From NCBI GenBank assembly GCA_963733905.1, contig CAVTEU010000013.1, forward strand, positions 157,389 to 221,388: DNA of 64,000 nt, read 5' to 3'. The position numbers were made by a program, and so were the translations under genes. The DNA is from an uncultured Actinomycetes bacterium (GTDB taxonomy: Bacteria > Actinomycetota > Acidimicrobiia > Spongiisociales > DATADW01). This document shows positions 1,703 through 51,755 of the stretch, in pieces (position 1 is the stretch's first letter; every line of letters starts with the position of its first letter). The notes under the pieces are model-generated. The model saw nothing but the letters and a program-made list of their open reading frames with translations. It was not told where the DNA came from and made no database searches.

Positions 1703-1738
1703 CTCGAATCGGCGATCGCGACCCTGTCCCCGGGTGAA

Positions 1739-2486: not shown

Positions 2487-2548
2487 TCCCCTCCGCTCGC
2501 TGCGCTCGTCAGACGCTCCCCCTCACCGGGGAGGCAAACCATGGCTCT

Positions 2549-4119: not shown

Positions 4120-4133
4120 CTCGCAGGTCTCCT

Positions 4134-5776: not shown

Positions 5777-8700
5777 ATGTCTGTTCGCCGTGTATTGGTC
5801 TGTCTCGTCGCGCTCGCGATCGCTGTGGGCGTGCTCCCCGGGACCGCCATGGCGGCTTCGCCCACCGCCCCCTCACCCGTCGCCCCTGCCCAGGACTCCA
5901 CTCAACCCACCCGCTGACCCGCTTCGGTTGGCGGACACCGACAGCACCAGCCCATACGCCGCTCTTCGTGAGGCTCCGTCGATCGCACCGCTGGCGGTGA
6001 CGGATCCCGAGTTCGAGGAGCAATCTGCCTTCACCGGGCTCGACCTGCCCACCGTCGTCCGCTTCGCCGCGGACGGCCGTGTCTTCGTCGGGGAGAAGGG
6101 CGGGAAGGTCAAGGTGTTCGATTCGATGTCCGACACCACGGCCACCACCGTCATAGACATTTCCGCCGAGACCTACGGGTGGTGGGACCGGGGGATGCTC
6201 GGGATGGCGCTCGACCCGAACTTCCCAGCCGAGCCATGGGTCTACCTGCTCACCACGACCTACCGCGGCCGCGACTATGCCGACGACTGTCCGTACGCCA
6301 CCGACCTCGACGCCGGCTGCATGGCCGACGGGCGGGTGGTGCGCTATCAGGTGTCGCCGACCAACGTCGCCAGCAACCGTCAGGTGCTCCTCGAGGGCAA
6401 CTGGTGCCAGCAGTACCCGAGCCACTCGATCGGGACCGTCGAGTTCGGGACCGCCGGCGAGCTCTACGTCGGCGCCGGCGACGGGGCCAGCTTCAACTTC
6501 AGCGACTACGGCCAGGGTGGGGGACGAAACACCGACACCCCGAAGAACCCGTGCGGTGATCCTCCCGTTCCCGGTCGGTGGCACGCAGCAGGCGACCACC
6601 GGTCAGGGCGGCGCTCTGCGCAGCCAGGACCTCCGCACCGCGGGCGATCCGGTGAACTGGAACGGCGCCATCCTGCGGGTCGACCCGGATACCGGCCAGC
6701 CCCTTCCCAACAACCCACTCGTCGGGCAGGGAAGCGCCGACGACGACCGGGTGGTGGCCTACGGGTTGCGCAACCCATTCCGCTTCACCGTCCAGCCGGG
6801 CACCGGCGAGCTGTGGATCGGGGACGTCGGCTGGGGCACCTGGGAGGAGATAAACCGCCACCAGAACCCCACGCAGACGGTCCGCAACTTCGGCTGGCCC
6901 TGCTACGAGGGAAACGCCCGCCAGAGCGGGTATGACTCGCTCAACAACAACGTGTGCGAGACCATGTACGGCGACGCCACCGCCCACACCCCGCCGGTTC
7001 TCCCCTGGAACCACTCGAGCTCGTTGGCGGGATGCGGCGGCGGCTCGAGCTCGGTGGCCGGGCTCGCCTTCTACGAGGGCGGCAGCTACCCCGACGCCTA
7101 CGACGGGGCGCTGTTCTTCTCCGACTTCTCCCGGCAGTGCATCTGGGTGATGTACCCCGGTAGCGGTGGCGTGCCCAATCCGGCGACCGTCGAGCTTTTC
7201 GCCAGCCAGGTGGGCACTGTCGGGCTCGAGATCGGGCCAGGCGGTGACCTCTTCGCCGTCGACCACTTCGGCGGCCGGATCATCCGATACCGCTACACGG
7301 TCGACCCTGAGAACACCGCACCGGTCGCCGCAGCATCGGCCAACCCCACCTCGGGCGCCTCCCCGCTCACCGTCAACTTCAGCGGCACCGGCTCCACCGA
7401 CGCCGATGGCGATCCGCTCACCTACGACTGGGACCTCGACGGCGACGGCGCCTTCGACGACGCCTCGGGGGCGACTCCGCAGTTCACCTATGTCACGCCG
7501 GGAATCCACACCGCGACCCTTCGGGTGAGCGATGGGCGCGGCGGGACCGACACCGCACAGACGGCCATCACCGTCAACCCGGCCAGCGGGTCCGGCGACG
7601 GCTACCTGACTCTCCCCGGGACCGCCGGGGTGGACATCTCCTCAGCGCCCTCGCCCACATTCGACATCACCGGTGATCTCGACCTGCGCGCCGATGTCGC
7701 CCTGAACGACTGGGACTCACCGTCGGGCAAGTTCGTCTCCAACCTGATCACCGGCACCGGCGCCCAGGGCTACGAGCTGATGCTCAACGGAACCACCAAG
7801 GGCCTCCGACTCGCCTGGGTGGACGGGGGCGGCACGGTCCGCGTGGCCAACTCGACCGTGGCCCTACCCGTCACCGACGGACAGCGGCTCCAGATCCGCG
7901 GCGTGCTCGACGTCAACAACGGAGCGGGCGGCCACACCGTCAGCTTCTTCTACCGCACCGATACCACCCCCGACCTGGAGGCCGATACCGGTTGGACCCA
8001 GCTCGGCGGTGCGGTCAACACCGGAACCGGCACCACTTCGGTCAACCCCGGGGACCAGGAGATGGTGCTCGGGGGGCGGGTCCTCCACGACGTCGAGTTC
8101 TGGTCGGGCCGCTACTACGCGGCCTCGATCATCAGCGGGACGACCGGCAGCGGCCAGGTGCGGGCCGACCTCGACTTCGGCACCACCGGCCAACTCACCT
8201 CGACCCCACCCGACTACTCGGAGTGGACCGACACCCCGGGCAATGTTTGGAATGTCAACGGGACCGGTTGGGGATACGTCCTCGGCGCCAACCAACCGCC
8301 GACCGCGGTGCTCGGGGCCAATCCCCAGTCCGGCCCGACCCCGCTCCAGGTGAGCTTCACCGCATCGTCTTCCACCGACCCGGATGGCGATCCGCTCAGC
8401 TACGCATGGGACCTCGACGGCGACGGCCAACTCGACGACTCCACGGCTAGCGGCACCGCAGTTCACCTACGCCACACCCGGCAGCTACCCGGTGACGCTT
8501 CGGGTCAGCGACGGCCGCGGCGGGGTCGACACCGACACGGTCACCATCGACGCCACCGACGGAAACACCGCCCCCACCGCCACCATCACCACCCCCGACG
8601 GCAGCGCCCTTTGGAAGGTGGGCGACACCATCAACTTCACCGGCACCGCCTCCGATCCGAACGAGACGCTCGGTGCCTCCTCGATGAGCTGGCGGCTGGT

Positions 8701-11700
8701 GATCCACCATTGCGCCCACAACGAGCCGACCGACTGCCACCAGCACGGGATCAACGACTGGAACGGCATCGCCGGCGGCTCCTTCGTGGCTCCCGACCAC
8801 GAGTACCCGTCGCTATCTCGAGCTGTCGCTCACCGTGACGGACTCGGGCGGCAAGACCGGGACCGACTCGGTCCGCCTCGACCCTCGCACCGTCGAGCTC
8901 ACCTTCGAGAGCGCCCCGGTCGCCGGGCTCGCCCTCTCGGTGGGGGCATTCGCCGAACGGACGCCTTTCACCCGAGAGGTGATCGTCGGGTCGGCCAACT
9001 CGGTGACCGCAGTCAACCCACAGGCAAAGGAAGGCGTGGTCTACGGCTTCGACTCGTGGGCCGACGGTGGAGCCGAGAGCCGATTGATAATCGCCCCGGC
9101 CGCCGACACCACATACCGGGCCGTGTTCCAGGGAGCGCCCCAGGAGCAGGACGGATATCTCACCCTCCCCGGAGCGGCAGGGACCGACATCACCGCTCCG
9201 GCGGGACCCAACTTCGACGCCATCACCGGGACCCTCGACATCAGGGCCGATGTCGCCCTCGACAACTGGTCCACCTCCAACGCCAAGTTGATCTCGAACC
9301 TGCGGACCTCGAGCCTCGGATCGGCCGAGGGCTATGAGCTGATCCTCGACGGGACCACGCGGCAGGCTCCGCCTCGCCTGGGTCAACTCGGCAGGCACGC
9401 TCCAGACGCGCACCTCGACCGTCGCCGTCCCGGTGGCCGACGGCCAGCGGATCCAGTTGCGCGCCACGCTCGAAGCCGACAACGGTGCCGGCGGCCACAC
9501 CGTGACGTTCTTCACCAGGAGCGACGTGGAAAACGAGCTGTTCAACCACTCTGGCTGGACCGAGTTGGGCACCGCGGTCACGACCGTCGGGGATAACCAC
9601 CGTCCGGCCCGGCGACAGGGACATGGTGCTCGGCTCCCGGTTCGACCATGCCGCCGGGTTCTGGTCGGGGCGCTATTACGCGGCGATGCTGATCAACGGG
9701 ATCGGCTTCTTCGGCCAGGTGGTGGCCAACCCCGACTTCAGGACGACCGCCCAGCAGGGCACGATCCCGCCGGACTATTCCGGGTGGACCGACGGTGTCG
9801 GCAATCCCTGGACGGTGGCCGGCGACGGCTGGAGCTACACGATCGGCGGGCCAAACCGCAGCCCGGTCGCCGCGCTCACCGCCAATCCCAACCAGGGTGA
9901 GGCACCGCTGACGGTCTCGCTCGATGCAACCGGCTTCCACCGATCCCGACGGGCACTCCCTCACTTACGACTGGGACCTCAACGGCGACGGACAGTTCGG
10001 CGACGGCGACGGCATCTACGATCCAGACCACCTACCCCGCAGGTACCCACAACCCCACGGTGCGGGTGGACGACGGACATGGCGGCACGGACACCGCCTC
10101 GGTCACGGTCACCGTCACCGAGGCGCCGCCCGGAGGCGTCGGCCACATCCAACTGCCTGGCCTCGCCGGCACCAGGGTGCAGACGCCCGACACCGCCGCC
10201 CTCGACATCACCGGCGACATCGATCTGCGCGCCGATGTCGCCCTCGACAACTGGGCCACTTCCAACGCCAAGCTGGTGTCGAAGTTCCCGGGCGCCTACG
10301 AGCTCATGCTCAACGGGACCACGAGACAGCTCCGGGTCGGGTTCGCCCGCGCCGTCGGCGGGGCGCAGACGGTGAACTCGACCGTCGCCCTGCCCGTCGC
10401 CAACGGCGACCGGCTCCAGGTGCGCGCCACGATCGACATTGACACCGCGGCCAAGAACACCAAGGTCACCTTCTGGTACCGGACCGATGTCACCGCCAAC
10501 CTGACCAACTCCACCGGCTGGACCCAGCTTGGAGCGGTCGTCACCAGGAACGGCGCGGTCGCCATCGCCAACGGGGCCAACGCCCTCTCGCTGGGCGCCG
10601 GGACCCGATGGGGCTGGTCCCTGGGCGGGGGACTTCTACCAGGCCGCGGTCCTCTCCGGGATCGGGGGCACCCCAGCCGCCGCCCTCGACCTGCGGACAC
10701 CGGCACAGGCGACCGCGCCCGACTTCTCGGAATGGACGGATGGAGCCGGCCGCGCCTGGGACGTGCTCGGCACGGGCTGGGTGTACGACCCGGGGACTCC
10801 GAACACGGCGCCCAACGCCATCCTCAGCGCCAACCCCCAGTCGGGGACGGCGCCGCTCACGGTGAACTTCAACGCCTCCACCTCGACCGACCCCGACGGC
10901 GACGCTGCTCACCTTCGCCTGGGACCTCGACGGCGACGGGCAGTTCGACGACGGCAGCGGCCCACCGCCACCCACACATACGCCGAGGGCACCCACCACC
11001 CCGCGGTGGAGGTGAACGATGGGCGGGGCGGGACCGACACCGCCACCGTCACCATCGTGGTCAACGCACCGACAGGGCCGGGTGGCGTGAGGTTCAACGG
11101 CGGCGCCGGGGCAGTCATCACCACCCCTGACCGGGCCCTGCTCGACATCGCCGGCGACCTCGACATCCGCGCCGACGTGGCGCTGGACGACTGGAACGAC
11201 GACGGGGCACGCCTCGTCTCGAAGGGGACCGCCTACGAGCTGTCTCTCAACGGCACCACCGGCGGGTTGCGTTTCGCCTGGACCCGACGCAACGGGTCGC
11301 CGTCGGCGGTCACCTCCACGGTCCCGCTACCCGTCGCCGACGGGGGTCGGATCCAGGTGCGGGTCACCTTCGACGGGGTCACCCCCCCGCCGAGGTTGAG
11401 CGCGGTCACCTTCTGGTACCGGACGGCAACCTCCACCGAGCTCTCCTCCAACAGCGGGTGGACCCAGCTCGGGTCGGTGGTCACCGCCGCCCAAACCGGA
11501 CAGCTGGCGGTCAACGCCACTGCCCTGGCCCTCGGGGCGACACCCGACGGCACCTCCGGCAACTGGGCGGGTGAGTACCACGCCGCCCTGGTCCTCTCCG
11601 GGATCGCCGGGACCGCCGTGGCCTCACCCGACTTCCGCGACCTCGACCAGCTGACCAGCACCCCACCCGACTACTCGCGCTGGACCGACCCCAACGCCAA

Positions 11701-23467: not shown

Positions 23468-24229
23468 TCAGCGCTCGGCATCCGCTTCAAGCAGACGGTG
23501 GAGCGCCGCGGTTTCCGGGGCGTACATTTCCTCGAGCAGTCGACGGTGCTCGTCGGGGATGGCGTCGGGACGCTGGCGCCCCACCACGTCAGCCCCGCCG
23601 CCTACCCCCCGGTCGATGACCGACCCTGCGGGAAACTGTCCCCAGTCGCCGGGGACCGAGACACCGAGGTGGGTGAGCACCCGGGTCAAGAGCTCGAGCG
23701 GGCGATCCCGGATCTCATCGTTGGATACAACGAGCAGCCGTTCGTATGGGTACTCGGCCCGCCACCGCTCGATCATGGCGGTGTAGTCGACATTGCTCCG
23801 GGTCGAGGCGCGACCGAAGAACTCCCGGTACTCCTCGGAGGGGACGTCAGACGGTTTCCGCGCCTGCTCCCTAGCCAGCTTCATCACGGCGTGCGACCAC
23901 ACCGTGTCGACCGGATCACGGACGACGAGGATCAGCCGGGCATCGGGCAGGAGCCGCCGCACCGCCGCCACCCGCTTCGGAGGAAGCAACGAGTAGGCGG
24001 GAGTTATCTCGCCCCTGACTTTCCCGGCTCCGGCGGCGAAGTGCCCTGCGTACCAGTGGGGCGACTTGTGCCAGCGGCCGTCGAAGTAGTGGACCTCCTT
24101 CACGTCGGGGAGGTACAGCTCTGGATGAGCCCGGAGGTTGTGGTGGAGCCATGTGGTCCCGGTCTTGGCCGCACCGATCCCGAGGAAGTCGGGCAGGTTG
24201 GCCGGGGGCTGGATCCATCCTCTGGCCAT
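23468..24229 (-). CDS. sulfotransferase family protein
   Basis: PAPS 5'-phosphosulfate loop GIGAAKTGTTWLHHNL and LILVVRDPVDTVWSH. Intact. Confidence 0.8.
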   Translation of the reverse strand: MARGWIQPPANLPDFLGIGAAKTGTTWLHHNLRAHPELYLPDVKEVHYFDGRWHKSPHWYAGHFAAGAGKVRGEITPAYSLLPPKRVAAVRRLLPDARLILVVRDPVDTVWSHAVMKLAREQARKPSDVPSEEYREFFGRASTRSNVDYTAMIERWRAEYPYERLLVVSNDEIRDRPLELLTRVLTHLGVSVPGDWGQFPAGSVIDRGVGGGADVVGRQRPDAIPDEHRRLLEEMYAPETAALHRLLEADAER

Positions 24230-24394: not shown

Positions 24395-24631
24395 TCACCG
24401 GCGTTCCTCGACCAGGCGGGCTATGCCGGCGACATTCTCGAAGTGCGAGAGGTCGACATCATCGGCGTTGATCTCGACACCGAACTCCTCCTCGAGGAAC
24501 CCGATGAGTGTGAGCACCCCCATCGAGTCGACGATCTCGGATGTGATCAGCGGCGTGTCGTCGTCGATCACCGACCCGGGCGCGAGCTCTTCGGAGATGT
24601 AACGGCGGATCGTCTGAGCAGTCGAGGTCAT
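24395..24631 (-). CDS. acyl/peptidyl carrier protein (79 aa)
   Basis: MTSTAQTIRRYISEEL...LITSEIVDSMGVLTLIGFLEEEFGVEINADDV. The Ser of DSM is the likely phosphopantetheine attachment site. Confidence 0.8.
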   Translation of the reverse strand: MTSTAQTIRRYISEELAPGSVIDDDTPLITSEIVDSMGVLTLIGFLEEEFGVEINADDVDLSHFENVAGIARLVEERR

Positions 24632-24834
24632 GAGCACTTCTAGGTCTGGTCGCGGTGTTCCGCGCCGTCGGAGGGTCGATGGTACCGGCGGGCATGTCCC
24701 ATCGTTCGCGCTGCAGTATCGACCCGGGGTGGCCGATATTTGAGCTGACACCGGGCCACGACCCGGTCGTCCGTACACTCCTGCAACCCGCCGCGGCCCA
24801 CTGGGCGAAGAGCGCGGCACCGAGGTAGAACGTC

Positions 24835-25738
24835 ATGTTGGAGGTGAGGTCGATAGAGACGACCATGCTCGAGGAGGATGGCTCCCGGGCCGAGGCCTGT
24901 TTCGTCGAGACCGACCGGGGGGCCCTGTTCATGGTTACGCACCTACCCGCCGGACCGGCGCAGGGTGCCGTGGTCGTGTGCAGCCCGATCCAATCCGAAT
25001 TGCTCAAGAACAACCGCCGCGAGGTGATGCTCGCCCGCCGCCTCGCCAGCCAAGGCTTGGCGGTGGCTCGCTTCCACTACATCGGCACCGGGAACAGCGA
25101 CGGCGAGGTGAGCGACGTCACCATCGACGGCATGGCTGCGGACACTGCCGCGGTCGCCACCGCCCTTGCCGCGGACACCGACCGGATCGGGTTCGTCGCC
25201 ACGAGGCTCGGTTCGCTGGCTGCGTCCCACGTCGCATCTGGGCTGCCCGGTTCGCCCCTCGCCTTGTGGGAGCCGGTGGTCTCGGGTCGCGGCTACCTCA
25301 AGGAGCTGATGCGGGTCAGGCTGATGGTTGGGATGCGGCAGGGGACCGACGGGAGCGAGGCGCCACCGGTGACCGACGAGATCGCAGACCAGCTCGCCCG
25401 GACAGGCTCGTTCGCGGTCATGGGATTCTCCATCGGAGGCGGACTCAAGGATGACCTCGAGCGAAGCGATCTCAGGATCGAGCATCCCGCCGATCATGAC
25501 GTGCTCGTTGTCCAGTTCGGTCAGCGGGCGGGGATACGCCGCGAACTCCGAGCGCTCGCTACGGATCTCGAACAACGAGGAGGTGCTCCCGACGGTCGAG
25601 CAGGTGCCTTTTGACGAGGCCTGGTGGCTCCATGTCGATGTGGATGCCCTCACCCCCGAACGTGAGCTTGCTCTGAACACCGATGTCGTCGGCCGCACCG
25701 AGCGGTGGCTGACCGGCGCTCTCGGGGTGGTTGTATGA
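24835..25738 (+). CDS. alpha/beta-fold protein, type A (Arg at nucleophile-elbow position), frameshift near 25585
   Basis: VVVCSPIQSELLKNNRREVMLARRLASQGLAVARFHYIGTGNSDGE; elbow FVATRLGSLAA. The C-terminus (VEQVPFDEAWW...) is in frame 25451..25738. Paralogous to 26661..27536. Confidence 0.7.
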
Positions 25739-26664
25739 CCGGGGCACTGCTCTCCACCGGTGTGCGCGAACGCCCCGTCTTCTTTCCATCCGATGGGAAC
25801 ACCCTGTTCGGTGTGCTGACCGAGCCGGAGGGACCCCGCAACGGGGTCGGTGTCCTCCTCATCCAGGGCGGCGACACCGTCAACGTCTCGCTCCACCGCA
25901 ACCGGCTCGCCGTCAGGCTGGCACGCAGCCTCGCCGCCGATGGGTACACCTGCCTCCGCTTTGACTACCACGGTTTGGGGGAGAGCTCGGGTGACATCGG
26001 GGCCTTGCACCTCAACAACCCCTTCACCGAGGACGCCGAAGCCGCGGCCGAGGTGATGCACCAGCTCGGGATCGACGACCTGGTGCTCGTCGGCGCCTGT
26101 TTCAGCGCCCGGACCGCCCTATCGGCAGCGCCGCTCATCGACGGAGTCCGCGCCGTGGTTATGGCCACGCCACCTGTGGCCGGCTACGGGCGGGACGACG
26201 CCATGGCCGAGCGGCTGTCGCGGGAATGGTCGTGGTCTGATTATGTGAAGAGGGCAGCTCGCCTCGAGACCCTCGCCAACCTGGCTCGGCCGTCGCACCG
26301 TCAGGCATACAGCCGGTTCGCCCGCTCCAAGCTGCGTGGCACACGCCGCCCCGGAGGAGGCGACCCCACATTGCGTTGGGTGAGCCCGATGTTGCTCGAT
26401 CCGCTCGACACCATGGTGGAGAGGGGCGTGCCCGTGCTCGTCGTGTTCGGCGACAAGGACCCGCTTCTCGGCGAATGGCAGCGGGCGTCCACAGGACGAC
26501 TCGGCTCCATCCTGGAGAGGGCAGGTGACCAGGTCGAAGTGATTGACGACCTGCCCGGCGTGGTTCACGGCTTCCTCGGGATCGATGTCCAGGACCGGTT
26601 CCTCGCACTGACGACCGACTGGATCAGGGCAAGGGTGCCCACCGCCGTTCGGGATCTTCAGTGA
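25735..26664 (+). CDS. alpha/beta-fold protein, type B (Cys at nucleophile elbow)
   Basis: LFGVLTEPEGPRNGVGVLLIQGG...RLARSLAADGYTCLRFDYHGLGESSGD...LVLVGACFSARTA...VVFGDKD...VVHGF. ATGA overlap with the upstream gene. Confidence 0.75.
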   Translation: MTGALLSTGVRERPVFFPSDGNTLFGVLTEPEGPRNGVGVLLIQGGDTVNVSLHRNRLAVRLARSLAADGYTCLRFDYHGLGESSGDIGALHLNNPFTEDAEAAAEVMHQLGIDDLVLVGACFSARTALSAAPLIDGVRAVVMATPPVAGYGRDDAMAERLSREWSWSDYVKRAARLETLANLARPSHRQAYSRFARSKLRGTRRPGGGDPTLRWVSPMLLDPLDTMVERGVPVLVVFGDKDPLLGEWQRASTGRLGSILERAGDQVEVIDDLPGVVHGFLGIDVQDRFLALTTDWIRARVPTAVRDLQ

Positions 26665-27536
26665 AGATGGCGGCCGTGGCGACGAGACCATGGCGACGAG
26701 ACCCGACAACCGACATCACCGAAGAGGCTGGCTACGACGGTGACCGGTTCTGGGTCTCGCACCAGCCAGAGCGCCCCCGCTTGGGGGTTCTGGTCTGCAG
26801 TCCGCTCCACGCCGAGATGCAGCGCAACTACCGCCGCGAGGTGCTGCTGAGCCGCCGGTTGGCAAGCGCCGGCGCCGCAGTCGAGCGATTCCACTACCGC
26901 GGCATCGGCAACAGTGCCGGGGAGCCCAGTCGCCTCGCTCTGGAGACGATGATCGAAGACGGGGTCGCCGCCGTCCGCCATCTCCAGCAACGGGTAGGGG
27001 GCGTGCCGTTGGTGGTCCTCGGGACCAGGGTCGGAGGACTGGTCGCCGCCGCCGTGGCTGCAGAGGAGAAGGCAGCCGGTCTCGCCCTGTGGCAACCACT
27101 GGTCAAGGGGTCTGCCTACATGCGCGAGGCGGAGCGCTCCGCCATGGCGAGGGCCATCACCCGAACTGGCGATGAGCGCCCACCGCCACTCCGGGAGGTG
27201 CTCGCCTCCCAGGGATCGGCCGACGTGCTCGGGGAGAGGGTTTACGCCGCGCTGAGCGCCAGCCTGGAGACGGCTCAGCTGAGAACGCTCATCGGCGACG
27301 AGCCGCGGCCCGTCCTGCTGGCGCAGGCCGGCGGTCCCGAAGGACTGCGCGGCGAGCTGGCACGGTTGGCCGACGAGCTCTCCGAGAACGGGTTCACCGT
27401 CACCGCCCGTCCCACCGGGGACGCAGAGGTCTGGTGGGCCAACCCCGGTGGCGACCTATTCCGCGAGGAGGACGACAAGCCCCTCACCGTCGAGCTTCTT
27501 CGGATCACTTCCGAATGGTTGGAGACGTTGTCGTGA
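26661..27536 (+). CDS. alpha/beta-fold protein, type A' (Arg at nucleophile elbow)
   Basis: VLVCSPLHAEMQRNYRREVLLSRRLASAGAAVERFHYRGIGNSAGE; elbow VVLGTRVGGLVAA. GTGA overlap with the upstream gene. Confidence 0.75.
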   Translation: MKMAAVATRPWRRDPTTDITEEAGYDGDRFWVSHQPERPRLGVLVCSPLHAEMQRNYRREVLLSRRLASAGAAVERFHYRGIGNSAGEPSRLALETMIEDGVAAVRHLQQRVGGVPLVVLGTRVGGLVAAAVAAEEKAAGLALWQPLVKGSAYMREAERSAMARAITRTGDERPPPLREVLASQGSADVLGERVYAALSASLETAQLRTLIGDEPRPVLLAQAGGPEGLRGELARLADELSENGFTVTARPTGDAEVWWANPGGDLFREEDDKPLTVELLRITSEWLETLS

Positions 27537-28390
27537 TCGAGCAGCCCTTTTTCGTCGAGTCCGGCGGGGAGGATCTCTTCGGGGTCGTCGCTCTGCCGGA
27601 TGTGCCGGCACGGACCGTCGCCACCCTGCTACCCGCGGGCGGCTACACGTTCTCGCCGCAACGAAATGGGTGGGGCACCAGGCTTACCCGGAGTCTGGCG
27701 GACTCCGGTTTGGCCGCCGTCCGCTTCGACTGGCACGGCATCGGGGACAGTTCGGGACGGGCGGGCAACTTCGCCCTCGACCAGCCTTTCGCCGATGACG
27801 CCCTGGCGCTGGTGGAGATGGCCCGGTCGGAGGGCTGGGAGCGACAGGTCCTCGTGGGACATTGCTTCGGGGCCCGCACCGCCCTCGCCATCGCACCACA
27901 AGTGCCAGGTCTCGTCGGAGTAGCCCTCGTGTCCCCGCCGGTCCGGGACCATGCCCGTGGCGAGGGCGGGGCCAACCGGCTCGCCTACGACCTTGGCACC
28001 GCCGGGTACCTGCGCACCGCGGCGGGCAAGTTCCGCTGGAGCGCGCTGTCCGACCCGGCCGAGCGACGGCGCTACCTGCGGCTTGCTCGCTCCTTTGTCA
28101 GGATCCGGTTGGGCGCCGCCAAGCGCCGGGTTCAACAGTTGCGTGGCAGCGGCGTCGATCCCGTGCCATGGGTGAGCAGGCCGATGCTCGACCAGTTGGC
28201 GTGGCTCGCCGACAGAGGGCGTCCCGGTGCTGTTCGTCTACGGGGACGAAGAGAACGACTTCACCGAGTTCGGCGAGGCGCGCCAAGGCCGGCTGGGTGA
28301 GATCCTCGAGAAGAACGCCGAGAAGATCCGCCTAGAAGTGGTCCCGGGCTCGGGTCTCGGCGTCGCGCTATGGGGAATGGCACGCAGCCA
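27533..28390 (+). CDS. alpha/beta-fold protein, type B' (Cys at nucleophile elbow); frameshift near 28218 and 3' end disrupted at the IS remnant
   Basis: LFGVVALPD...RLTRSLADSGLAAVRFDWHGIGDSSGR...QVLVGHCFGARTA...; PVLFVYGDEEN is in frame 28227... GTGA overlap. The natural C-terminus is not identifiable. Confidence 0.65.
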
Positions 28391-28398
28391 CGAAGGCG

Positions 28399-29150
28399 AT
28401 GACATCGCCGGGATGGACGCAAGACACCCAGGAGCTGGTGGCGAGGGGATGGCGCCACTACCTGGGCCCGGTGAACGAGAAGGGATCCCCGCTGCTGATC
28501 GACATCGATTCCACCCACATCGAGACGTTCGGCAAAGCCAAGGAGGGAGCCAGCGCCCGCAACTATCTGGGGGCCAAGGGATATCACCCGCTGCTCTGCG
28601 CCGAAGCCTCCACCGGGCAGATCCTGGGGACGGAGCTCCGCCGAGGCAACACAGCTGATGACAACGACGCCGCCGCTTTCTTGGACGCCACCTGGGACAG
28701 CTGCGTACTGTCATCAGCGCAGACCAGACCGTGGTGTTACGAGCCGATTCCGGCTTCTACACCGGCGAGATCGTCGATGCCTGCAGCCGTCACCGAGTTG
28801 GCTACTCGATCACGGTGCGACAGTTCCCCCCATCAGAAAACGGATCGGCGACATCCCAGCGGAGGAATGGCAACCCGCGGTGCACACCCGCACGCGGCAT
28901 GAAGACCTCGCCGCGATTCCCTTCACCATCAAAGGCCGCCGCGGCAGCAACAGAACACCCACGACTTGCCGACTGGTGGTGCGACGTACCACCACCCCGG
29001 CCGACACCGGACAAAGCCAACCCCGGTTGTTCGACCTGGTAGACTACCACGCCTTCATCACCGACCAACCCGGAGACCCCGCCGTTCTCGCCTCGCGCCA
29101 CCGCCGCCACGCCGTGATCGAGAACGTCACCCGAGACCTCAAGACGGCTG
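28399..29150 (+). mobile_element. IS1380-like DDE transposase remnant (both ends truncated, frameshifted)
   Basis: LLIDIDSTHIETFGKAKEGASARNYLGAKGYHPLLCAEASTGQILGTELRRGNTADDND, VVLRADSGFYTGEIVDACSRHRVGYSITVRQ and CRLVVRRT...LFDLVDYHAFITDQPGD...HRRHAVIENVTRDLK lie across three frames. No terminal inverted repeats recognised. Confidence 0.6.
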
Positions 29151-30078
29151 CGGAACCACCCCCTCCGCTTGCGTTCGGCTCTGGCCTCGCCCTCACCTGG
29201 GGAGGCCGGGGAGTTCCGTCTTCCGTCTTCCGTCTTCCGCCTTCTCGGCGGAACAACTCAAATCCGGTGAGGAAACGCTCGAGGAACTCGCCGCCTGCTT
29301 CGTCGAGCAGGCTTTCCCAGCGGGGGTCGCCGCGGTAGCGGGTCACCTGCGAGACGTGGGCGGCGATCGCCGCTTCCTTTTGGTCGAGAACCTCGGCCAC
29401 CGGGACCGCCCAGGTGAACCCGGCGGTGGGCTCACCGGTCGCAGCGGCGGTAAGGGCGGTCTTCATCCGGCGGGCGAGCTTGCGCAACCCACCGCGGCCG
29501 GTCAACGGGAGCGGCCCCCATGGCCAGTGCTGCCACCACCACACCGGGTACTCGACCACGGCGGCGTCGGAACCGACCGATGCGAGTGCTTGCCGAGCGA
29601 TTCGATAGGCCGCCTCGTGGTCGGGATGGCCGTCGTCGGCCGCGGTGACGAACACCTCGGCGGGGCGGACCTCCTCGAGGATCGGGACCAGTTGGGCGGC
29701 GGCCGCCGCTTCGTCCTGTCGCAGGGCGCCGTCGCGGAACCCGAGAAACCAGGCGCGGTGAGGGCCAACCCCGAGCTGGTCGAGCGATGCGATCTCCTCA
29801 CGGCCACGGAGAGCCGTCAACTCGGCGCGGTCGATCAGGTCCCGATTGGCGAAGGCACCGTCGGTGAGCACCGCCACGGCGACATCGACGTCCAATCTCC
29901 TCTTGCGGGCGATAGTCCCCCCGCACCCCAGAGTGTCGTCATCTGGGTGAGGCGCCACCACCAACGTCGGCCGGCGAAGTTGCTCATCGTCGGCCACCGA
30001 CCATTCACGGGCAGCGCGGCGCCAGCGGCGGTCCCGCACCCGAGCGCGCCAACCGCGTTCCCGGGGTTGGACGGTCAT
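29044..30078 (-). CDS. PIG-L/LmbE family deacetylase; ORF tail probably extended into the IS remnant
   Basis: TLVVAPHPDDDTLGCGGTIA...DGHPDHEAAYR...AIAAHVSQV. Family-like sequence ends near FELFRRE (~29250), and the remaining ~200 nt of the ORF are antisense to IS-derived DNA. Confidence 0.7.
   Translation of the reverse strand: MTVQPRERGWRARVRDRRWRRAAREWSVADDEQLRRPTLVVAPHPDDDTLGCGGTIARKRRLDVDVAVAVLTDGAFANRDLIDRAELTALRGREEIASLDQLGVGPHRAWFLGFRDGALRQDEAAAAAQLVPILEEVRPAEVFVTAADDGHPDHEAAYRIARQALASVGSDAAVVEYPVWWWQHWPWGPLPLTGRGGLRKLARRMKTALTAAATGEPTAGFTWAVPVAEVLDQKEAAIAAHVSQVTRYRGDPRWESLLDEAGGEFLERFLTGFELFRREGGRRKTEDGTPRPPQVRARPEPNASGGGGSAAVLRSRVTFSITAWRRWREARTAGSPGWSVMKAW
29214..29241. repeat. heptamer tandem repeat (TTCCGTC) x4, last copy imperfect
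   Basis: ttccgtc ttccgtc ttccgtc ttccgcc, at the junction of the IS remnant and the 3' end of the minus-strand PIG-L gene. Confidence 0.7.
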
Positions 30079-31315
30079 TTTGGGCTCCTCGTCGGTATCA
30101 AGGTCGAGTAGAGGTCGAGGGTACGCGCGGTGACCTTCTCCCAGTCGTACGCCTGTGCCAGCTGCCTGCCTGCTTCGCCCATACGGCGTGCTAGTTCCGG
30201 GTCACGGCGGATCTGGAGGATGGCATCGGCCAACTCTGCCGGATCTTCCGGCTCGATGAGGACGCCGCTGGTCCCGTCGGCTACGAGATACTCCTGGCCA
30301 CCGACCCGGGTGGCGATCACGGGCCGTCCCCGACGCCATGGCCTCCACCACCGTCATCCCGAAAGACTCACTCAAAGAAGGATTCACCAGCACTGAAGCC
30401 GCGGCGTATCTGACGGGCAGATCCTGGTAGGGCACCACGCCGGCCCAATCGACCCGGGACCGCAGCCCAGCGGGGATCCTCTGCTCGAGTTGCGCCCGGT
30501 ATGGAGGTCCCCCATACCACCTACCGAGTTCTCGCACTTGGGGGTCGGTCGAACCACGGACAACCGCCTCGGCGGGGAGGACGCTGTGCGGACCGACCAG
30601 CGTGAGCTTGATCCGATCATCATCAGCGGCCAGGGCAACAACGGCATCGATCAGGGTGTGGACACCCTTTTCCGGGGAGACCCTCCCCACGAACAGCACG
30701 TTGAAGTCCTCGCCGTCGGTGACTATCGACAGCGGAGAAGGCGGAGGCATCGACGCCGTTGGGGATGGTGTGGATTCGCCCCGCGTTCGCCGGGTGGGCG
30801 AGTCGAGCGCGCCGGGTCACGTGGTCGCTGCAGGTGACCACGGCATCGGCCGCCCGGACCGCCGGGGCGGTCTGAGCCGGGGACAGGTCGGAGAGCCACT
30901 CGTTGTGGAGGTGGAGCACGATCGGCACCCGCCGGTTGAACGCCCTGATGACGCGGGTGAAGGGGAACTGGCTCTGAATGTGGACCAGGTCGGGGCGGCG
31001 GCGGCGGATGTCGATCGCCGCCTGGATGGCGAACCCCAGGTGGGTCCACAACGAGGTGAGACGGGGGCGGCGCGGATCCTTGCTCGATGGCAAGAACCGC
31101 AGCATTCGGGAAAGGAGGTTGTCGGGAAGCGTCGCCAGCAGCCGGTACTCGACACCGTGGTGGCTCTGGCGGGTGGTGCCGGTGCGTTCCCCGCTGGCAT
31201 AGACAGTCACTTCGTGGCCGGCTGCGACCATGCGGCGGGCCACTTCACCGCTCCAGATCCCTATCGAGATTGTCGGAGTCGGTGGACGGGAAGCGGCGCC
31301 GGGTTGGTTGACCAT
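30075..31315 (-). CDS. glycosyltransferase family 4, 2 frame changes (~30735, ~30325)
   Basis: RIAMVNQP... N-terminal domain in frame 30623..32647; FNVLFVGRVSPEKG...SESFGMTVVEAMASG in frame 30202..30750; IATRVGGQEYLVADGTSGVLIEPEDP in frame 30075..30320. Confidence 0.8.
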
Positions 31316-31363
31316 GGCGATTCGGAGCGGCCGGGCGGCGCCATCCCGGTACGCTCCCTCGCC

Positions 31364-32263
31364 GTGGGCGAGATCTTCGAAGCCCTTCTCCGACCCGAGA
31401 TGTTCGCCGGGCTCGCCGCCGGTGCCATTGCCGCCGTCGCTTGCGCCGCGGCTGCCCTCATCTTGCGTCGCCGCCCGCTCCCGGTCGCTGGACTGGCGAT
31501 CGCTGCCGCCTTCCTCGCCGTCCTCCGCCCCCCCACCCCCGTGCTCATCGCCGTGGGCTTGCTGGCGTTGATCGGGATAGCCGGCGATCTTCGGCCCGGT
31601 CTGATCCCCTTGGCCGGTGTGCTGGCTATCGGACCGGCGATGTTGTTGGTCTTCTCCGGAGAGGTCTTCGAGCCGTTGTGGGGTCGGATCGCCGGTGTGG
31701 CGGCCATATCGCTTGGTGGAGGACTCGCCGCCTGGTCGGAGCATCGGCGCCCCTCGAGCTGGGCCGGTCCGGTACTGGCCGCGGGCAGCGCTCTCGGGGT
31801 GTTCATCGTGGTTCCCGACACTGAGCGTGCCCTTGTCCTCCTCGGTGCGGCGCTGCCGGTCGCGCTCCTCGGCTGGCCATTGCGGCTGGCCAGGCTGGGA
31901 ACGGGCGGCGTGCTCTCCTTCGTCGGTGTCCTGGTGTGGGTCGTGCTCCGCGACGGCGCCACCCGCGACTCGGCCATCGTTGGCGGGCTTGCCGCCCTCG
32001 GCGTGCTGGTGGCCGAGCCGGTGGCTGTGCTGTTGGGTCGCCTGTTCTCGGGCGCTTGGTCCCCCCCGGTTTCCGATTGGCTCCTCGTTGCCACCGATGC
32101 CGTGGTCATCCTTCTCGCCGGCCGACTGGCCGGGACCCTCGACTCGGCCGAGGATGCCATGCTCGTCGCCGGGCTCGTCCTGGCGGGAGCGGTGGCGCTG
32201 CTGACCGCGGCGGAGCTGCGCCGACCCGAGCCGGAGGAAGCTGCCGGTCACGGGCCCCGGTAG
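31364..32263 (+). CDS. polytopic membrane protein of unknown function (~300 aa, about 8-9 predicted TM segments by eye)
   Basis: Second half of track ORF 30602..32263 is Ala/Leu/Gly-rich hydrophobic segments. Start candidates are GTG 31364 or ATG 31400. Divergent from the GT4 gene. Confidence 0.55.
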   Translation: MGEIFEALLRPEMFAGLAAGAIAAVACAAAALILRRRPLPVAGLAIAAAFLAVLRPPTPVLIAVGLLALIGIAGDLRPGLIPLAGVLAIGPAMLLVFSGEVFEPLWGRIAGVAAISLGGGLAAWSEHRRPSSWAGPVLAAGSALGVFIVVPDTERALVLLGAALPVALLGWPLRLARLGTGGVLSFVGVLVWVVLRDGATRDSAIVGGLAALGVLVAEPVAVLLGRLFSGAWSPPVSDWLLVATDAVVILLAGRLAGTLDSAEDAMLVAGLVLAGAVALLTAAELRRPEPEEAAGHGPR

Positions 32264-42620: not shown

Positions 42621-43378
42621 AGGTGGCTGCGGTCGCCGATGAACAACCGTGCTCCCGACAGCCGTCTCCGCAGCAAGGCGACGATGAGGTCGAATGCGGG
42701 GACTCCGAGGAGGAACGCCGCCACCGTCAGCCGAGGTGCGCTCTCGTCACCTGCGGAAACCGTCGCCATCCCGTATACGAGGACGAGGCCAACGACGTAG
42801 GCGCCGTTGTCGCCAAAGAAGACACGTGCCGGGTGCCAATTGAGAACGAGCACCCCGGCGCAGGTAGCTGCAAGCAACAGCGGTACGACGGCACCAACCT
42901 CCCGCATCGACCCCATCACGAATAGCGCCAACCCGGTCACCAATGCGACCGAGCCGAGCAACCCGTCGAGCCCGTCGAACAGGTTGACCGCATTCACCGC
43001 CGCCACCACCAGGATCACCACCACCACCCGCTCGACGGGCCCAAAGCCGCCGGGGACGGCGCCGAGCGCCAGCACCACACCTGCCACCGCCTCCACCAGG
43101 AGCCGAACACGTGGGTCGAGCCCGGCCCGGTCGTCGACCAACCCGAGTACCAGCAGGATCGCCATCGCCACCGCCAGCCATGGCGAGATGAACCCTTCCA
43201 CCACAGAGCCGGCCAGCACCCCGAGAAAGACACCCACTCCGCCGAGAGGCACCGCCGGTGTGCGATGCGTCTTGAGAACGTCGTCCGGCCGGTCTACGAA
43301 ACCGAGCGCCGGTCCTAGCCAGAGCGAGAGGACGCACCAGGCCAGGGCCACCGCAAAGGCAATGACTACTCCGACCAC
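42413..43378 (-). CDS. polyprenyl-phosphate N-acetylhexosamine-1-phosphate transferase (WecA/MraY family priming glycosyltransferase)
   Basis: LGFVDRPDD.LKTHRTPAVPLGGVGVFLG...LGLVDDR...AVNAVNLFDGLDGL...FFGDNGAYVVG. A GTG start at 43378 overlaps the upstream gene's end. Confidence 0.8.
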   Translation of the reverse strand: MVGVVIAFAVALAWCVLSLWLGPALGFVDRPDDVLKTHRTPAVPLGGVGVFLGVLAGSVVEGFISPWLAVAMAILLVLGLVDDRAGLDPRVRLLVEAVAGVVLALGAVPGGFGPVERVVVVILVVAAVNAVNLFDGLDGLLGSVALVTGLALFVMGSMREVGAVVPLLLAATCAGVLVLNWHPARVFFGDNGAYVVGLVLVYGMATVSAGDESAPRLTVAAFLLGVPAFDLIVALLRRRLSGARLFIGDRSHLYDQLHDRGMTIRRVALLAAAAQVVWAAIVIGVDATMEGWSAVVVLGVLAVAVLAGLAALGFVRPRLAG

Positions 43379-45123
43379 ACCAGTTCCACCGACGGTTCCC
43401 CGGCATGGACCGCCACCTCGTCGGCGTCCACGAACCCGGCCGAGCGGAACAGGGCGAGCGACGCCGTGTTGTCGGCACCGACCACGACACGGACCGATGG
43501 GAGCCGGCGGCGGCGGTAGCACGACTCCATCTCGGCGAGCAGCCGGCCGCCGACCCCCCTCCCCCTGACCTCGGCGCTCACCGCCACGGCGAGAAGCTCG
43601 GCGGGGACAGTGCTCGAGTCTCCACCCCCATAGCGGAGAGTCTCCAGCGCCCGCCGCAGCACCGATGGCCGCACCAGCCGGGGAGACGCGGCGAATGCGG
43701 CGAACAGACCATGACGTCTCAGGAAGTAGCGGTAGAAGGCCGGCGTGTCAGCGGTGGAGGCGGCGAAACCCACGGGTCCTGCTTGGTCCTCCGCCACGAG
43801 CACATCGGCGCCGGGCCATTCGATCAGCGCCCTGTAGAGGCGGCGGAGGAATCCCCGACCGAGCCTGGGTAAGAACCCGGTGGCTATCTCGGCATGGAGA
43901 CCGGCGACAACCGGGGCGTCCTCGGGCGTGGCCGGGCGGATCGGCGGAGGTGAGCCGGGGGTCGCCTCGGGGAGCAACCGGGCCAGACCCTTGCTCCGCC
44001 CGGCGCGCCGGTAGGTGTCGAGGACGATCTGGACGACGCGCCGCTCGTCGAACTCGGCCTCTGCCTTGCGGCGCGCCTCGACACCCATCTCTCGCCGCCG
44101 GTCGCCGCTCTCGCCGATGGCGATGATGGCGGCCCGAAGTGCCTCGGGATCCTCGACCGGAACGAGGAGACCGGTCTCACCGTCGGCCACCACCTGGCGG
44201 CACCCTCTGATGTCGGTCGCCACCACAGGGAGCCCGGTCGCCGCCGCCTCCATGGCCGAGCGGGGAAAACCCTCGCGGTGTGACGGGAGCACGAAGATGT
44301 CCATGGCGGCGTAGAGCCGGTCGACGTCGTCGCGCATGCCGAGAAAACGCACCCCGGTCGCCTCGGCTGCGGCAACCATCTCACGGGGAAGGGCATCTGG
44401 CTTGTCGGGCTCGTCGGGGCCGATGGCGAGCACCAGGTACCGGTCGTCAAGCCCCTCGGCTGCTGCGAAGAGCTCGGGGTAACCCTTCTCGGCCACCAGT
44501 CTCCCCACGACACCGACCACAACGTCGTCCGGTCGAGCACCGATCTCTTCCCTGATCCGGGCCCGCTCTTCGGCGTCGAATCTCGCCGGGTTGAACCTCT
44601 CCAGGTCCACACCGTTGCCGAGAAGACCGGTCTTCTCCGGGGCAGAGATGTGCCACCTGGTGAGCAGTTCCAGATCCTCAGGGTTCTGGACCAACTCGGC
44701 GTCGGAGCAGCGCGAGGCAATGGCCTCCAACAGGTAGACCCCGAGACGCTTGGTGGGCCGGTCCTCCTCGGTGGCGTAGAGGCCATGGACCGTGTTGACC
44801 ACCAGCGGAACCCCGGCGAGCCGGCCGACGATCCGCCCGTACACTCCCGGCTTGGGGTTGTGGGTGTGGAGGACGTCGGGGCGGATCTTGCGGAGGATGC
44901 CCCACAACGCCCTGGCGGCGCGCAGGTCCTCGCTAAGGCTCCACCCCCTCGTCGACCCCTCCAAAGGGATGAAACGGACGCCGGCGGCGACTATCTCCTC
45001 GACGAAGGGCCCCTCCGCCGAGATCCCATATGCCTCGCCCCCCAGGTCCACCACCGACGTGAGTTGGGGAAGCACCAGGAAGCGGAGGCTCATGTCCACG
45101 GTGGTGAGGTGAGCCACCCTCAT
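43366..45123 (-). CDS. glycosyltransferase family 4 fused to a C-terminal GNAT-like acetyltransferase domain (585 aa, intact)
   Basis: MRVAHLTTVDMSLRFLV...LPSHREGFPRSAMEAAATGLPVVATDIRGCRQVVADGETGLLVP, then ...LLAVAVSAEVRGRGVGGRLLAEME...NTASLALFRSAGF. Confidence 0.8.
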   Translation of the reverse strand: MRVAHLTTVDMSLRFLVLPQLTSVVDLGGEAYGISAEGPFVEEIVAAGVRFIPLEGSTRGWSLSEDLRAARALWGILRKIRPDVLHTHNPKPGVYGRIVGRLAGVPLVVNTVHGLYATEEDRPTKRLGVYLLEAIASRCSDAELVQNPEDLELLTRWHISAPEKTGLLGNGVDLERFNPARFDAEERARIREEIGARPDDVVVGVVGRLVAEKGYPELFAAAEGLDDRYLVLAIGPDEPDKPDALPREMVAAAEATGVRFLGMRDDVDRLYAAMDIFVLPSHREGFPRSAMEAAATGLPVVATDIRGCRQVVADGETGLLVPVEDPEALRAAIIAIGESGDRRREMGVEARRKAEAEFDERRVVQIVLDTYRRAGRSKGLARLLPEATPGSPPPIRPATPEDAPVVAGLHAEIATGFLPRLGRGFLRRLYRALIEWPGADVLVAEDQAGPVGFAASTADTPAFYRYFLRRHGLFAAFAASPRLVRPSVLRRALETLRYGGGDSSTVPAELLAVAVSAEVRGRGVGGRLLAEMESCYRRRRLPSVRVVVGADNTASLALFRSAGFVDADEVAVHAGEPSVELVWSE

Positions 45124-46233
45124 GCTGGACCATCCTGGTCCCTGGTCAGCAAGCGGTCGAACACGGTGGCAAACCGGTCGACGGCAGCGTCGAGGGTGAA
45201 CCGGGAGAGGGCAAGGCGGCGCGCCTCCTCGCCCATGGCGAGCGTTCGGTCCCGATCGGTGGCCATCTCCGCCAGGACCGCCGAAAGTGCATCGATGTCG
45301 CCTCGGTTGACCAGTCGCCCTGTTGTTCCGTCGACCACTGCCTCGCTCACTCCTCCGACATCGAACCCGGCAGTAGGCACCCCGGCGAACGCCGCCTCGA
45401 GGACAGCTCCGGGTAGTCCTTCGGTAGCCGAGGTGAGTATCAGGACGTCTGCCCACTGAAGGTGCGGAAGAACATCGGCAACAACGCCGATCAACTCGAC
45501 CGTTCCGGTGAGACCGCGCCGCTCCACCTCCTCGCTCAGTGTCTTCTCCTGGGCGCCGCCCCCCACCACACGCATCCGGACCGGGACAGACCGACCAGCC
45601 CGCTCCACGGTCTCCAGCGCCGCCAGCGGGTCCTTCTCGGTGGTGAGGCTGCCCAGAAAGAGGATCCGAAGCTCGGGGTGGTCATCATCCCGGACTGACC
45701 TCGGACAATCGCGGCGCGGCGCCGATCGGCGACACCTCGACCCGATCCGGGGGAACTCCGAGTCCCAACAACTGGCCGCGGGTGGCGGTGGAGACGGCGG
45801 TGACGAAATCGGCCATTCGGAGCTGGATCGAGAGGAGACGGCGCGAGAGCGGCGTGCGGGCCCAGTGCGCCGGCTCCCCGATGCTCCCGTAAACCAGAAG
45901 AGGACGGCGGCGTCGGAAACGGGTGGCGGCGATGCCATAGCGCAACGTTGCGCCACCGTTGGCGAAGACGATGCCGGGACGGAACTCATCGACCCTGCGA
46001 CGCAAAGGCACGACCACGTCGCGACTGAGTCGCCCCAGCCGAGCGCGCTCCCGGTCGCCCACGACCTCCGCATCCACCGTCGCCCCGCCAACAGCAGATG
46101 CCGGCGCCGATGAGAGCGCCACCAGATCGGTCTCCCAACCGCGCGCCGCCAGGCCGCCAGCCAACTGGCTCCCGAAAACCTCGGCCCCGCGCCGCTGGTT
46201 GGAGGTGATGAGCACCATTACCCGATGCGGCAT
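45120..46233 (-). CDS. glycosyltransferase family 4, frameshift near 45700
   Basis: MPHRVMVLITSNQRRGAEVF... in frame 45685..46608; ILFLGSLTTEKDP...TSATEGLPGAVLEAAFAGVPTAGFDVGGVSEAVVDGTTGRLV in frame 45120..46091. Confidence 0.8.
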
Positions 46234-46235
46234 GC

Positions 46236-46608
46236 TCAGCCGAGTTCGTTGAGGGGTCGGCCGGCCGGCGTAGCCCGTATCGACGTCGTGCCACCACTCG
46301 ATGTCGTCCTCGCCCTGCTGCCAGCAGAGGAGCACGACACGACCACCGGCACGATGGGGGAAGTCGATCAGAAGCGGGTCGAATCCTTTGATCTCGATCC
46401 CTTGGCGGCGGAACCACTCGAGATCTGCCCTCACCGAGAGCGTCCCGTCGAGAGCCGCCGGGTCGTGTCCATTTCCCCCGGCCACCTCTGCCAGGTGGTC
46501 GATGCCCGCCCGCACCTCGTCCAAGCCGGCGGCTATGCGATCGGCCCGGGTACGTGCCTCGGGGAGCAGGGTCCGAGCCTCGTCCACCGAGAACAGTCTC
46601 GACATCAC
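46236..46608 (-). CDS. DUF2203-like protein; as written it reads through in-frame into the downstream GT4 gene
   Basis: MSRLFSVDEARTLLPEAR...GIEIKGFDPLLIDFPHRAGGRVVLLCWQQGEDDIEWWHDVDTGYAGR. A 1-nt shift in GGCCGGCCG (~46262) would give ...RPLNELG and a stop at 46236-46238. Confidence 0.6.
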
Positions 46609-51737: not shown

Positions 51738-51755
51738 TGCGTAGTGGGATTCCGA

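Follow-up and report, generated by a model that had tools for sequence, protein, structure and literature searches.

Paired Arg-elbow and Cys-elbow alpha/beta-fold proteins beside a carrier protein and a sulfotransferase in an Acidimicrobiia glycan locus: a likely acyl-transfer module related to the exosortase-associated hydrolases

What might a bacterium do with two successive pairs of alpha/beta-hydrolase-fold proteins in which the position of the nucleophile is occupied by arginine in one partner and by cysteine in the other, and with which neighboring genes would such pairs act? The question is raised by a locus of an uncultured Actinomycetes bacterium of the class Acidimicrobiia (contig CAVTEU010000013.1 of assembly GCA_963733905.1, positions 157,389 to 221,388); this whole stretch of 64,000 nucleotides is referred to below as the window. 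Open reading frame (ORF) listing and three-frame translation of the window identified two divergent operons. The minus-strand operon encodes a carrier protein, with a sulfotransferase gene directly downstream; the plus-strand operon consists of four genes, A, B, A' and B', whose stop and start codons overlap at 25735 (ATGA), 26661 (GTGA) and 27533 (GTGA). Judged from sequence comparisons, an A-B pair is most likely a carrier-protein-dependent acyl-transfer module, because genes for a loading dehydrogenase, an adenylase and a carrier protein usually follow it in related genomes. The features of the locus are as follows, in window positions.

23468 to 24229, minus strand: sulfotransferase core, with an ATG at 24229 (PF13469, 64.6 bits against a cut-off of 27; PF00685, 44.7 bits against 22)
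24395 to 24631, minus strand: carrier protein of 78 aa (PF00550, 31.9 bits against a cut-off of 20.8), with the phosphopantetheine serine in EIVDSMG
24632 to 24834, no strand: divergent intergenic region of about 200 nt between both operons, read from the sequence, presumably containing the promoters of both
24835 to 25738, plus strand: A of pair 1, predicted Arg-elbow alpha/beta-fold pseudo-hydrolase (VATRLGS), frame-broken (TIGR03101, 91.7 bits)
25735 to 26664, plus strand: B of pair 1, predicted Cys-Asp-His alpha/beta-fold enzyme, intact at 309 aa (TIGR03100, 71.3 bits)
26661 to 27536, plus strand: A' of pair 2, predicted Arg-elbow pseudo-hydrolase (GTRVGG), intact at 291 aa (TIGR03101, 83.9 bits)
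27533 to 28353, plus strand: B' of pair 2, predicted Cys-elbow enzyme (GHCFGA) with its C-terminus cut off (TIGR03100, 48.1 bits)
28354 to 29215, plus strand: remnant of an insertion sequence (IS) element with a fragmentary, frame-broken DDE transposase (PF13701, DDE_Tnp_1_4, profile positions 133-203 of 435)

The A-B-A'-B' pattern is real and statistically solid. Scored with locally built hidden Markov models (HMMs), each copy is assigned to its own type (A 246, B 455, A' 343 and B' 209 bits), and the constancy of Arg in A-type (92/92) and Cys in B-type homologs (91/91) shows that the pattern is not a product of chance. The observation from which this analysis started, made from the DNA letters alone (the original prediction), is partly confirmed overall. 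The order and types of the four genes, their overlapping codons, the motifs ATRLGS and GTRVGG in A and A' and GACFSA and GHCFGA in B and B', and the divergent carrier protein with its DSM motif some 200 nt from A, followed by the sulfotransferase, were all read correctly, but A is not a single ORF in this genome, and 28390, given as the end of the set, lies inside the IS remnant and is not the end of a gene.

The same prediction had proposed a likeness to hydrolases 1 and 2 of the exosortase A system. This likeness holds to the extent that the top NCBIfam match of every copy is TIGR03101 (hydrolase 2, exosortase A system-associated) for A and A' and TIGR03100 (hydrolase 1, exosortase A system-associated) for B and B'; it does not extend to membership, all four copies missing the thresholds (curated cut-offs of 202.75 bits for TIGR03101 and 168.45 bits for TIGR03100). 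Ten proteins from five distant loci have the same top families, at 73-105 bits for TIGR03101 and 45-68 bits for TIGR03100. Because all of these scores are far under the curated cut-offs, the A and B proteins are classed by sequence as a sister clade of the two families and not as members of them. The clade comprises at least 1,309 sequence clusters (HMM search, E<=1e-30). Its alpha/beta-hydrolase fold is indicated by Pfam matches above the gathering scores (Abhydrolase_1 33.9 bits and Abhydrolase_6 32.7 bits for B; Hydrolase_4 46.7 bits for A' and 43.4 bits for B'), by AlphaFold models (predicted local distance difference test scores of 86.8 for B and 93.3 for A') and by Foldseek and PDB matches. 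The broken A fragment has no Pfam match, yet it matches TIGR03101 and the A-type HMM. Foldseek with the B model returned generic alpha/beta hydrolases only, and unnamed close relatives were all that came back when the most divergent A-type proteins were used for a profile search or when the whole library was searched by HMM. Exact look-ups of B, A' and the protein P0097 gave no record, and tblastn of A' against plasmids for exosortase hydrolases named by the prokaryotic genome annotation pipeline gave no match. The literature searched for the exosortase cassette, for the two TIGR families and for the specificity residues of the adenylases gave no functional account; the lone paper citing TIGR03100 lists it merely as a predicted hydrolase.

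The two partners differ at the nucleophile elbow. In an alignment of homologs, B-type proteins have Cys without exception (91/91) in the motif G-x-C-F-G/S, together with Asp in 85 and His in 84 of the 91 sequences, and A-type proteins have Arg without exception (92/92) in the motif G-T-R-x-G. Among A-type representatives clustered at 50% identity, Arg is found in 126 of 128, and a WW motif is also conserved. The residues in B are C122 (in GACFSA), D242 (in FGDKD) and H278 (in VVHGF); in profile alignments the Cys falls on the nucleophile Ser of GLSMGG in the structures 9pjb and 8b4u, the Asp and His fall on their counterparts, and the AlphaFold model places C122 between strand 115-121 and helix 123-134, which is nucleophile-elbow geometry. 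R123 of A' (in GTRVGG) aligns on the Ser of GFSLGG in 9pic and is placed by the model between strand 117-122 and helix 124-135. Alignment to 9pic shows that A-type proteins have WW at the His position, SP at the position of the oxyanion HG, and no acid. Triad residues at the canonical positions were thus found in the B-type and not in the A-type, the B' copy of this genome being without its His. From alignments and models, the B-type is predicted to be a Cys-Asp-His enzyme and the A-type a conserved pseudo-enzyme without nucleophile, His or oxyanion HG, in agreement with the original prediction, which had placed Arg and Cys at the elbow and had made the Cys protein the catalyst and the Arg protein its non-catalytic partner. 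An invariant Cys46 of the A-type, considered as an alternative nucleophile, was rejected: the residue aligned with it in the Ser-hydrolase 9pic sits buried at the end of a strand and is likewise a Cys.

A lipase-box-like G-x-C-x-G elbow, a Cys-Asp-His triad and two subunits also recall the class III and IV polyhydroxyalkanoate (PHA) synthases, and B might on these grounds polymerize carrier-bound hydroxyacyl or aminoacyl units through its Cys, with A as a PhaE/PhaR-like partner. This is very improbable: no such family or structure is found among the sequence and fold matches, and PhaC, with its 360-590 aa or so, is longer than the B-type proteins, which have about 300 aa.

When one genome per species was scanned, 537 relatives were identified, and the best 80 loci (denoted by L numbers) were kept for a survey of neighborhoods. 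The closest relative is an uncultured Acidimicrobiia metagenome-assembled genome (MAG) with 99% amino-acid identity, and the host is itself an Acidimicrobiia MAG, actinobacterial as had been surmised; the other hosts belong to the Actinomycetota, Armatimonadota, Eisenbacteria, Gemmatimonadota, Binataceae, Chloroflexi, Verrucomicrobia and Proteobacteria. By the locally built HMMs, an A gene lies directly upstream on the same strand for 84 of the 98 B genes in 78 genomes, the exceptions being mostly fragmented genes or additional B copies. The overlapping codons, which are conserved, and the co-diversification of the two types indicate that A and B probably work together as a heteromer. Among the top 150 representatives, five A-B fusions and one B-A fusion form single polypeptides, four of the six with both elbow motifs intact. 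The fusions are suggestive only, because a single-base indel at the ATGA overlap could make one; the same caveat of artefact applies to a more distant 527-aa fusion (P0096), which comes from a contig_-numbered ENA metagenome assembly like the contigs of the MFD MAGs.

Homologs proved to be syntenic with carrier proteins, and the commonest gene order among the kept loci is A-B-dehydrogenase-adenylase-carrier protein. The dehydrogenases of L065, L021 and L056 score 423-448 bits with the PigA model (cut-off 500) and 393-424 bits with the model for RedW, the L-prolyl-carrier-protein dehydrogenase; that of L009 is weaker, with 258 and 268 bits, respectively. The adenylases are above the cut-off of TIGR01733 (amino-acid adenylation), their second-best family is TIGR03098 (the exosortase-associated ligase, 316-352 bits), and the L-proline ligase PltF (6o6e, 354 bits) is the solved structure that gives their best single-domain match. 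Thirty of the 39 adenylases have the specificity residues DLFYLALV or DLLYLALV, which appear to resemble the code of stand-alone proline ligases. Since a PltF-like adenylase, a carrier protein and a PigA/RedW-like dehydrogenase are encoded next door, the donor in most relatives is probably a pyrrolyl-2-carboxyl-S-carrier protein made by the neighboring cassette. The adenylases of L013 (15165-16754) and L015 (14567-16156), which stand beside orthologs of pair 2, have the specificity residues DMAYSAQV and DMPYTAQV instead, which suggests that the lineage nearest the window uses another amino acid as its substrate.

These neighborhoods lead to the reading that we prefer, to which we assign a probability of roughly one half: the Cys of B would take an acyl or aminoacyl group from the thioester of a carrier protein and pass it to an acceptor, with A as a non-catalytic partner. 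The Cys of B would attack the acyl- or aminoacyl-thioester on the phosphopantetheinyl carrier protein to give an acyl-S-enzyme, and B would then acylate an acceptor at a hydroxyl or an amine. A may present an Arg-rich surface, for docking or for anion binding, to the acidic carrier protein, to the phosphopantetheine arm, or to an anionic (for example, sulfated) acceptor. B could instead be a thioesterase that hydrolyzes acyl- or aminoacyl-S-carrier proteins, either to release a free acid such as pyrrole-2-carboxylate or to edit mis-loading, with A in a regulatory or docking role. All of the closest solved structures are hydrolases or esterases, and stand-alone alpha/beta-fold thioesterases are common in carrier-protein pathways; in addition, the cassettes of L085 and L086 are not embedded in a glycan locus. 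We nevertheless regard hydrolysis as unlikely. The exchange of Ser for Cys is invariant among the B-type proteins, and Cys is typical of transfer enzymes that preserve the energy of the thioester, such as CmaE, SyrC and PHA synthase, and not of hydrolysis. Neither an obligatory pseudo-enzyme partner nor duplication as a pair is expected for a simple thioesterase.

As for the acceptor of the transfer that we prefer, the surroundings of the window are suggestive. The glycan locus extends from about 17.4 to 47 kb and encodes nucleotide-sugar enzymes, two PIG-L family deacetylases, several GT4 glycosyltransferases, a WecA/MraY-type priming transferase, GNAT acetyltransferases and large membrane proteins without Pfam match. 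The nearest solved structures of the sulfotransferase are the heparan sulfate glucosaminyl 3-O-sulfotransferases (3-OST) and N-sulfotransferases (NDST), so a sugar substrate fits and a carrier-bound acyl substrate of the CurM type is disfavored. The sulfotransferase and thioesterase logic of CurM was also considered and rejected: no CurM sulfotransferase occurs among the PDB matches of the sulfotransferase, and the CurM thioesterase ranks 31 by fold. Because the pairs, a dedicated carrier protein and a carbohydrate-type sulfotransferase lie within a glycan locus with PIG-L deacetylases, the acceptor in the window would most likely be a sugar residue of a cell-surface polysaccharide. Deacetylation followed by sulfation and/or acyl transfer onto the freed amine would be an attractive logic for such a locus.

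Several observations weigh against the transfer reading. No adenylase was found in the 64-kb window, whether it was searched by phmmer, with the adenylases of three relatives as queries, or for the AMP-binding signature. Three of the six genes of the window (sulfotransferase, A and B') are frame-broken, and B' is without the catalytic His. All six fusions are singleton clusters, from JGI, Logan or NCBI contigs. The cassettes of L085 and L086 lie outside glycan loci, and since this is so for some relatives, a polysaccharide acceptor is not general; transfer onto the polysaccharide, which the original prediction had proposed, is thus not established. Taken as a whole, that interpretation is partly supported, its direction being largely right. 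A broader version would make the obligate heteromer of pseudo-enzyme and enzyme a previously unrecognized class of carrier-protein-dependent acyltransferases, which would attach pyrrole-2-carboxyl or other amino-acid-derived acyl groups to cell-surface glycans or sulfated metabolites in many uncultured phyla, with the same chemistry in hydrolases 1 and 2 of the exosortase A system and the invariant Arg serving docking or anion recognition. This extension is tentative, and we consider it possible but doubtful.

The history of the pairs bears on what the window retains. Neighbor-joining trees of A-type and B-type proteins are congruent and contain two old pair lineages: pair 1 of the window groups with pair 1 of L014 and L015 and with the single pair of L009, L011 and L017, and pair 2 groups with the second pair of L013 and L015, which is followed there by an adenylase and a carrier protein. 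Because the trees are congruent and the window pairs cluster with separate pairs of distant loci, the duplication is, on this phylogenetic evidence, ancient. The duplication had been listed among the peculiarities of this locus; there are indeed two pairs, but they are old and no local novelty. L015 has a sulfotransferase-acyl carrier protein (ACP) operon divergent from A-B-D-D-A-B-adenylase-PCP (D, dehydrogenase; PCP, peptidyl carrier protein), and the clade of the window has sulfotransferase-ACP divergent from A-B-A-B. By this comparison, the dehydrogenases, the adenylase and the second carrier protein were lost from this locus in the clade of the window. The loading enzyme that had been called missing is indeed absent from the window, but as a loss from the locus of this clade, being present in most relatives. 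The scanned window ORFs likewise yielded no pyridoxal phosphate (PLP) decarboxylase and no exosortase, as the original prediction had stated. Acyl-CoA dehydrogenases are encoded at 50134-53607 but were rejected as candidates for the missing enzyme, given scores of only 134 and 41 bits against the cassette dehydrogenase and a position 22 kb away, outside the glycan locus.

An arrangement with two pairs and two carrier proteins would also suit a shuttle between carriers, in the manner of CmaE and SyrC or of CloN2 and CloN7. Through one pair, the acyl group would pass from the carrier protein linked to the adenylase to that linked to the sulfotransferase; the other pair would deliver it to the final acceptor. 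L013 and L015 both have this double set, pair 2 of the window has its orthologs in the pair that adjoins the adenylase and PCP, and CmaE and SyrC are precedents. Most genomes, however, have a single pair and a single carrier protein, and the clade of the window has both pairs yet only one carrier protein and no adenylase, which makes a shuttle distinctly improbable.

The reduced module is maintained by purifying selection in the clade of the window, as dN/dS (the ratio of nonsynonymous to synonymous substitution rates) is 0.08-0.19 for all six genes between L001 and L007, with 0.08 for the carrier protein and 0.16 for the sulfotransferase. L001, which shares about 95% DNA identity with the window, has A, B, A' and B' intact at 300, 309, 289 and 301 aa, and all four genes are also intact in L004, L007 and L008. 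The copy in this genome is damaged by comparison. A is split by a 1-nt insertion (CC to CCC) near 25588 into a frame at 24835-25614 and a second that runs to 25738. B' has a 1-nt insertion near 28215 relative to the intact 301-aa gene of L001, and the N-terminal extension of the sulfotransferase is out of frame, with a 1-nt insertion near 24252 relative to L001 and L004; in relatives, the sulfotransferase starts at a GTG that overlaps the stop codon of the carrier protein gene (24398-24396; GTGA overlap). An insert of about 0.8 kb after 28353 is missing from L001, L004, L007 and L008, whose alignments break at 28351-28353, and it takes the place of about 166 bp in these relatives, consisting of the 3' end of B' and the intergenic spacer. 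B' thereby loses its last 29 or so codons, including that of the catalytic His (the break corresponds to a point between VVPGS and VHGM in L001).

Since the C-terminus with the catalytic His is gone, B' is probably inactive in this genome, and pair 2 is probably disabled by the IS remnant, which is probably a real structural difference. The 1-nt insertions in A and B' lengthen short C or G runs. The lpd gene (dihydrolipoamide dehydrogenase, 4170-5487, minus strand) is likewise split into two frames near 5120-5128, and the E2 and lipoyl synthase genes (900-4134) also appear in pieces, a sign of single-base assembly errors throughout the window. The nearest relatives are MAGs of the MFD series with similarly fragmented gene calls. 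In view of the broken lpd frame and these fragmented gene calls, the simplest reading is that the three 1-nt insertions are probably assembly errors. The cassette might instead be a decaying remnant that does nothing in this genome, being without loading genes and having frameshifts in the sulfotransferase, A and B' as well as the IS truncation. The three insertions relative to L001 (that of the sulfotransferase also relative to L004), an IS fragment unique to the window and a 64-kb span without adenylase all fit such decay. It is nonetheless quite unlikely, as assembly error explains the frameshifts more simply, all six genes are under purifying selection in the clade, and B and A' are intact here.

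Further observations concern the glycan locus. The window segment 18330-21658 (3.3 kb) does not align to the corresponding 4.6 kb of L001, L004 and L008, which encode a DRL_cat/SAF dehydrogenase, a dTDP-sugar isomerase, a UDP-glucose/GDP-mannose dehydrogenase and an epimerase; in the window, the UDPG_MGDP dehydrogenase seems to be lacking, and the segment looks like a variable region for sugar precursors. A GT4 glycosyltransferase with a C-terminal GNAT domain, an unusual combination, is encoded at 43369-45132 (minus strand), and an ORF at 45697-46629 (minus strand) combines DUF2203 with a GT4 N-terminal domain, which may be an artefact of a frame break. Candidates for the polymerase, the ligase or the exporter are the polytopic membrane proteins encoded at 30602-32260 (plus strand) and by orthologs of L001 16616-19327, which have about 550-660 aa and 903 aa and match no Pfam family.

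The two cassettes outside glycan loci have surroundings of their own. In L085 (1-6792), an A-B-D-D-adenylase-PCP cassette lies a few kb from the genes for lipoyl synthase, E2 and lpd, with two small genes in between (one unannotated, one for an SLH-domain protein). The same housekeeping genes form the left flank of the window (900-5487), where genes for PKD-domain proteins, an oligopeptide ABC transporter and the glycan locus intervene after them. In L086, the cassette lies beside hydantoinase genes as well as a flavin halogenase-like gene: a tryptophan-halogenase-like flavoprotein and a divergent sulfotransferase are encoded directly upstream (7500-9806) of the A-B-dehydrogenase-adenylase-carrier protein cassette, which hints at a halogenated and/or sulfated pyrrole as product.

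The exosortase-associated pair of hydrolase 1 and hydrolase 2 has been a named annotation puzzle for years, and its sister clade offers a route to function. The division of labor is clear-cut in the alignments: one partner retains none of the catalytic residues and has gained an invariant Arg, and the other uses Cys. The neighboring set of proline adenylase, carrier protein and dehydrogenase gives a concrete substrate hypothesis, pyrrolyl-2-carboxyl-S-carrier protein, and if the acceptor is a glycan, the pair would add a new route by which bacteria decorate their surface polysaccharides. The window is a trimmed, partly damaged example, and L021, L056 and L015 are better experimental entry points.

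Among known systems, the ornithine-lipid pathway of planctomycetes uses OlsI, an O-acyltransferase of the alpha/beta-hydrolase fold (PMC12493201). The best NCBIfam match of the carrier protein in the window is the ACP of this pathway (NF052616, ACP_for_OlsHI); a link was rejected, as this match is weak (54.5 bits, under the cut-off of 130), A and B have no OlsI match at E<0.01, and there is no GH3-like OlsH here.

The exosortase A set has the same pairing of two alpha/beta-fold proteins (TIGR03101 and TIGR03100) encoded by adjacent genes, and the relatives of the window share with it an AMP-forming adenylase, with TIGR03098 as second-best family, and a carrier protein. The present clade differs in its scores of 45-105 bits against cut-offs of 168 and 203, in the absence of an exosortase or PEP-CTERM context from the scanned window ORFs and from the precomputed Pfam annotation of the relatives' flanks, and in its tailoring enzyme, which is a PigA/RedW-like protein of the acyl-CoA-dehydrogenase fold and not a PLP decarboxylase (TIGR03099). 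Its hosts are Acidimicrobiia, other Actinomycetota, Eisenbacteria, Armatimonadota and others.

The three genes that follow A-B in relatives match the pyrrole cassette of the pyoluteorin and prodigiosin pathways (PltF/PltL/PltE and PigI/PigG/PigA). This cassette is missing from the window, and in relatives no polyketide synthase or nonribosomal peptide synthetase follows it, its partners being the A/B pair only.

The closest mechanistic parallels are CmaE, SyrC and CouN7/CloN7, which have an alpha/beta-hydrolase-type fold, CmaE and SyrC using Cys. Unlike the pair, each of them works alone, with no pseudo-enzyme beside it, and their pathways make antibiotics or toxins; the likeness is one of mechanism only. 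All act on carrier-protein thioesters by way of a covalent acyl-enzyme: CmaE and SyrC shuttle aminoacyl groups between carrier proteins, and CouN7 acylates a sugar hydroxyl with pyrrolyl-2-carboxyl taken from a carrier protein (PMC8748450). The CouN7 pathway follows the same logic of proline adenylase, carrier protein and dehydrogenase as the genes that flank the pair in relatives.

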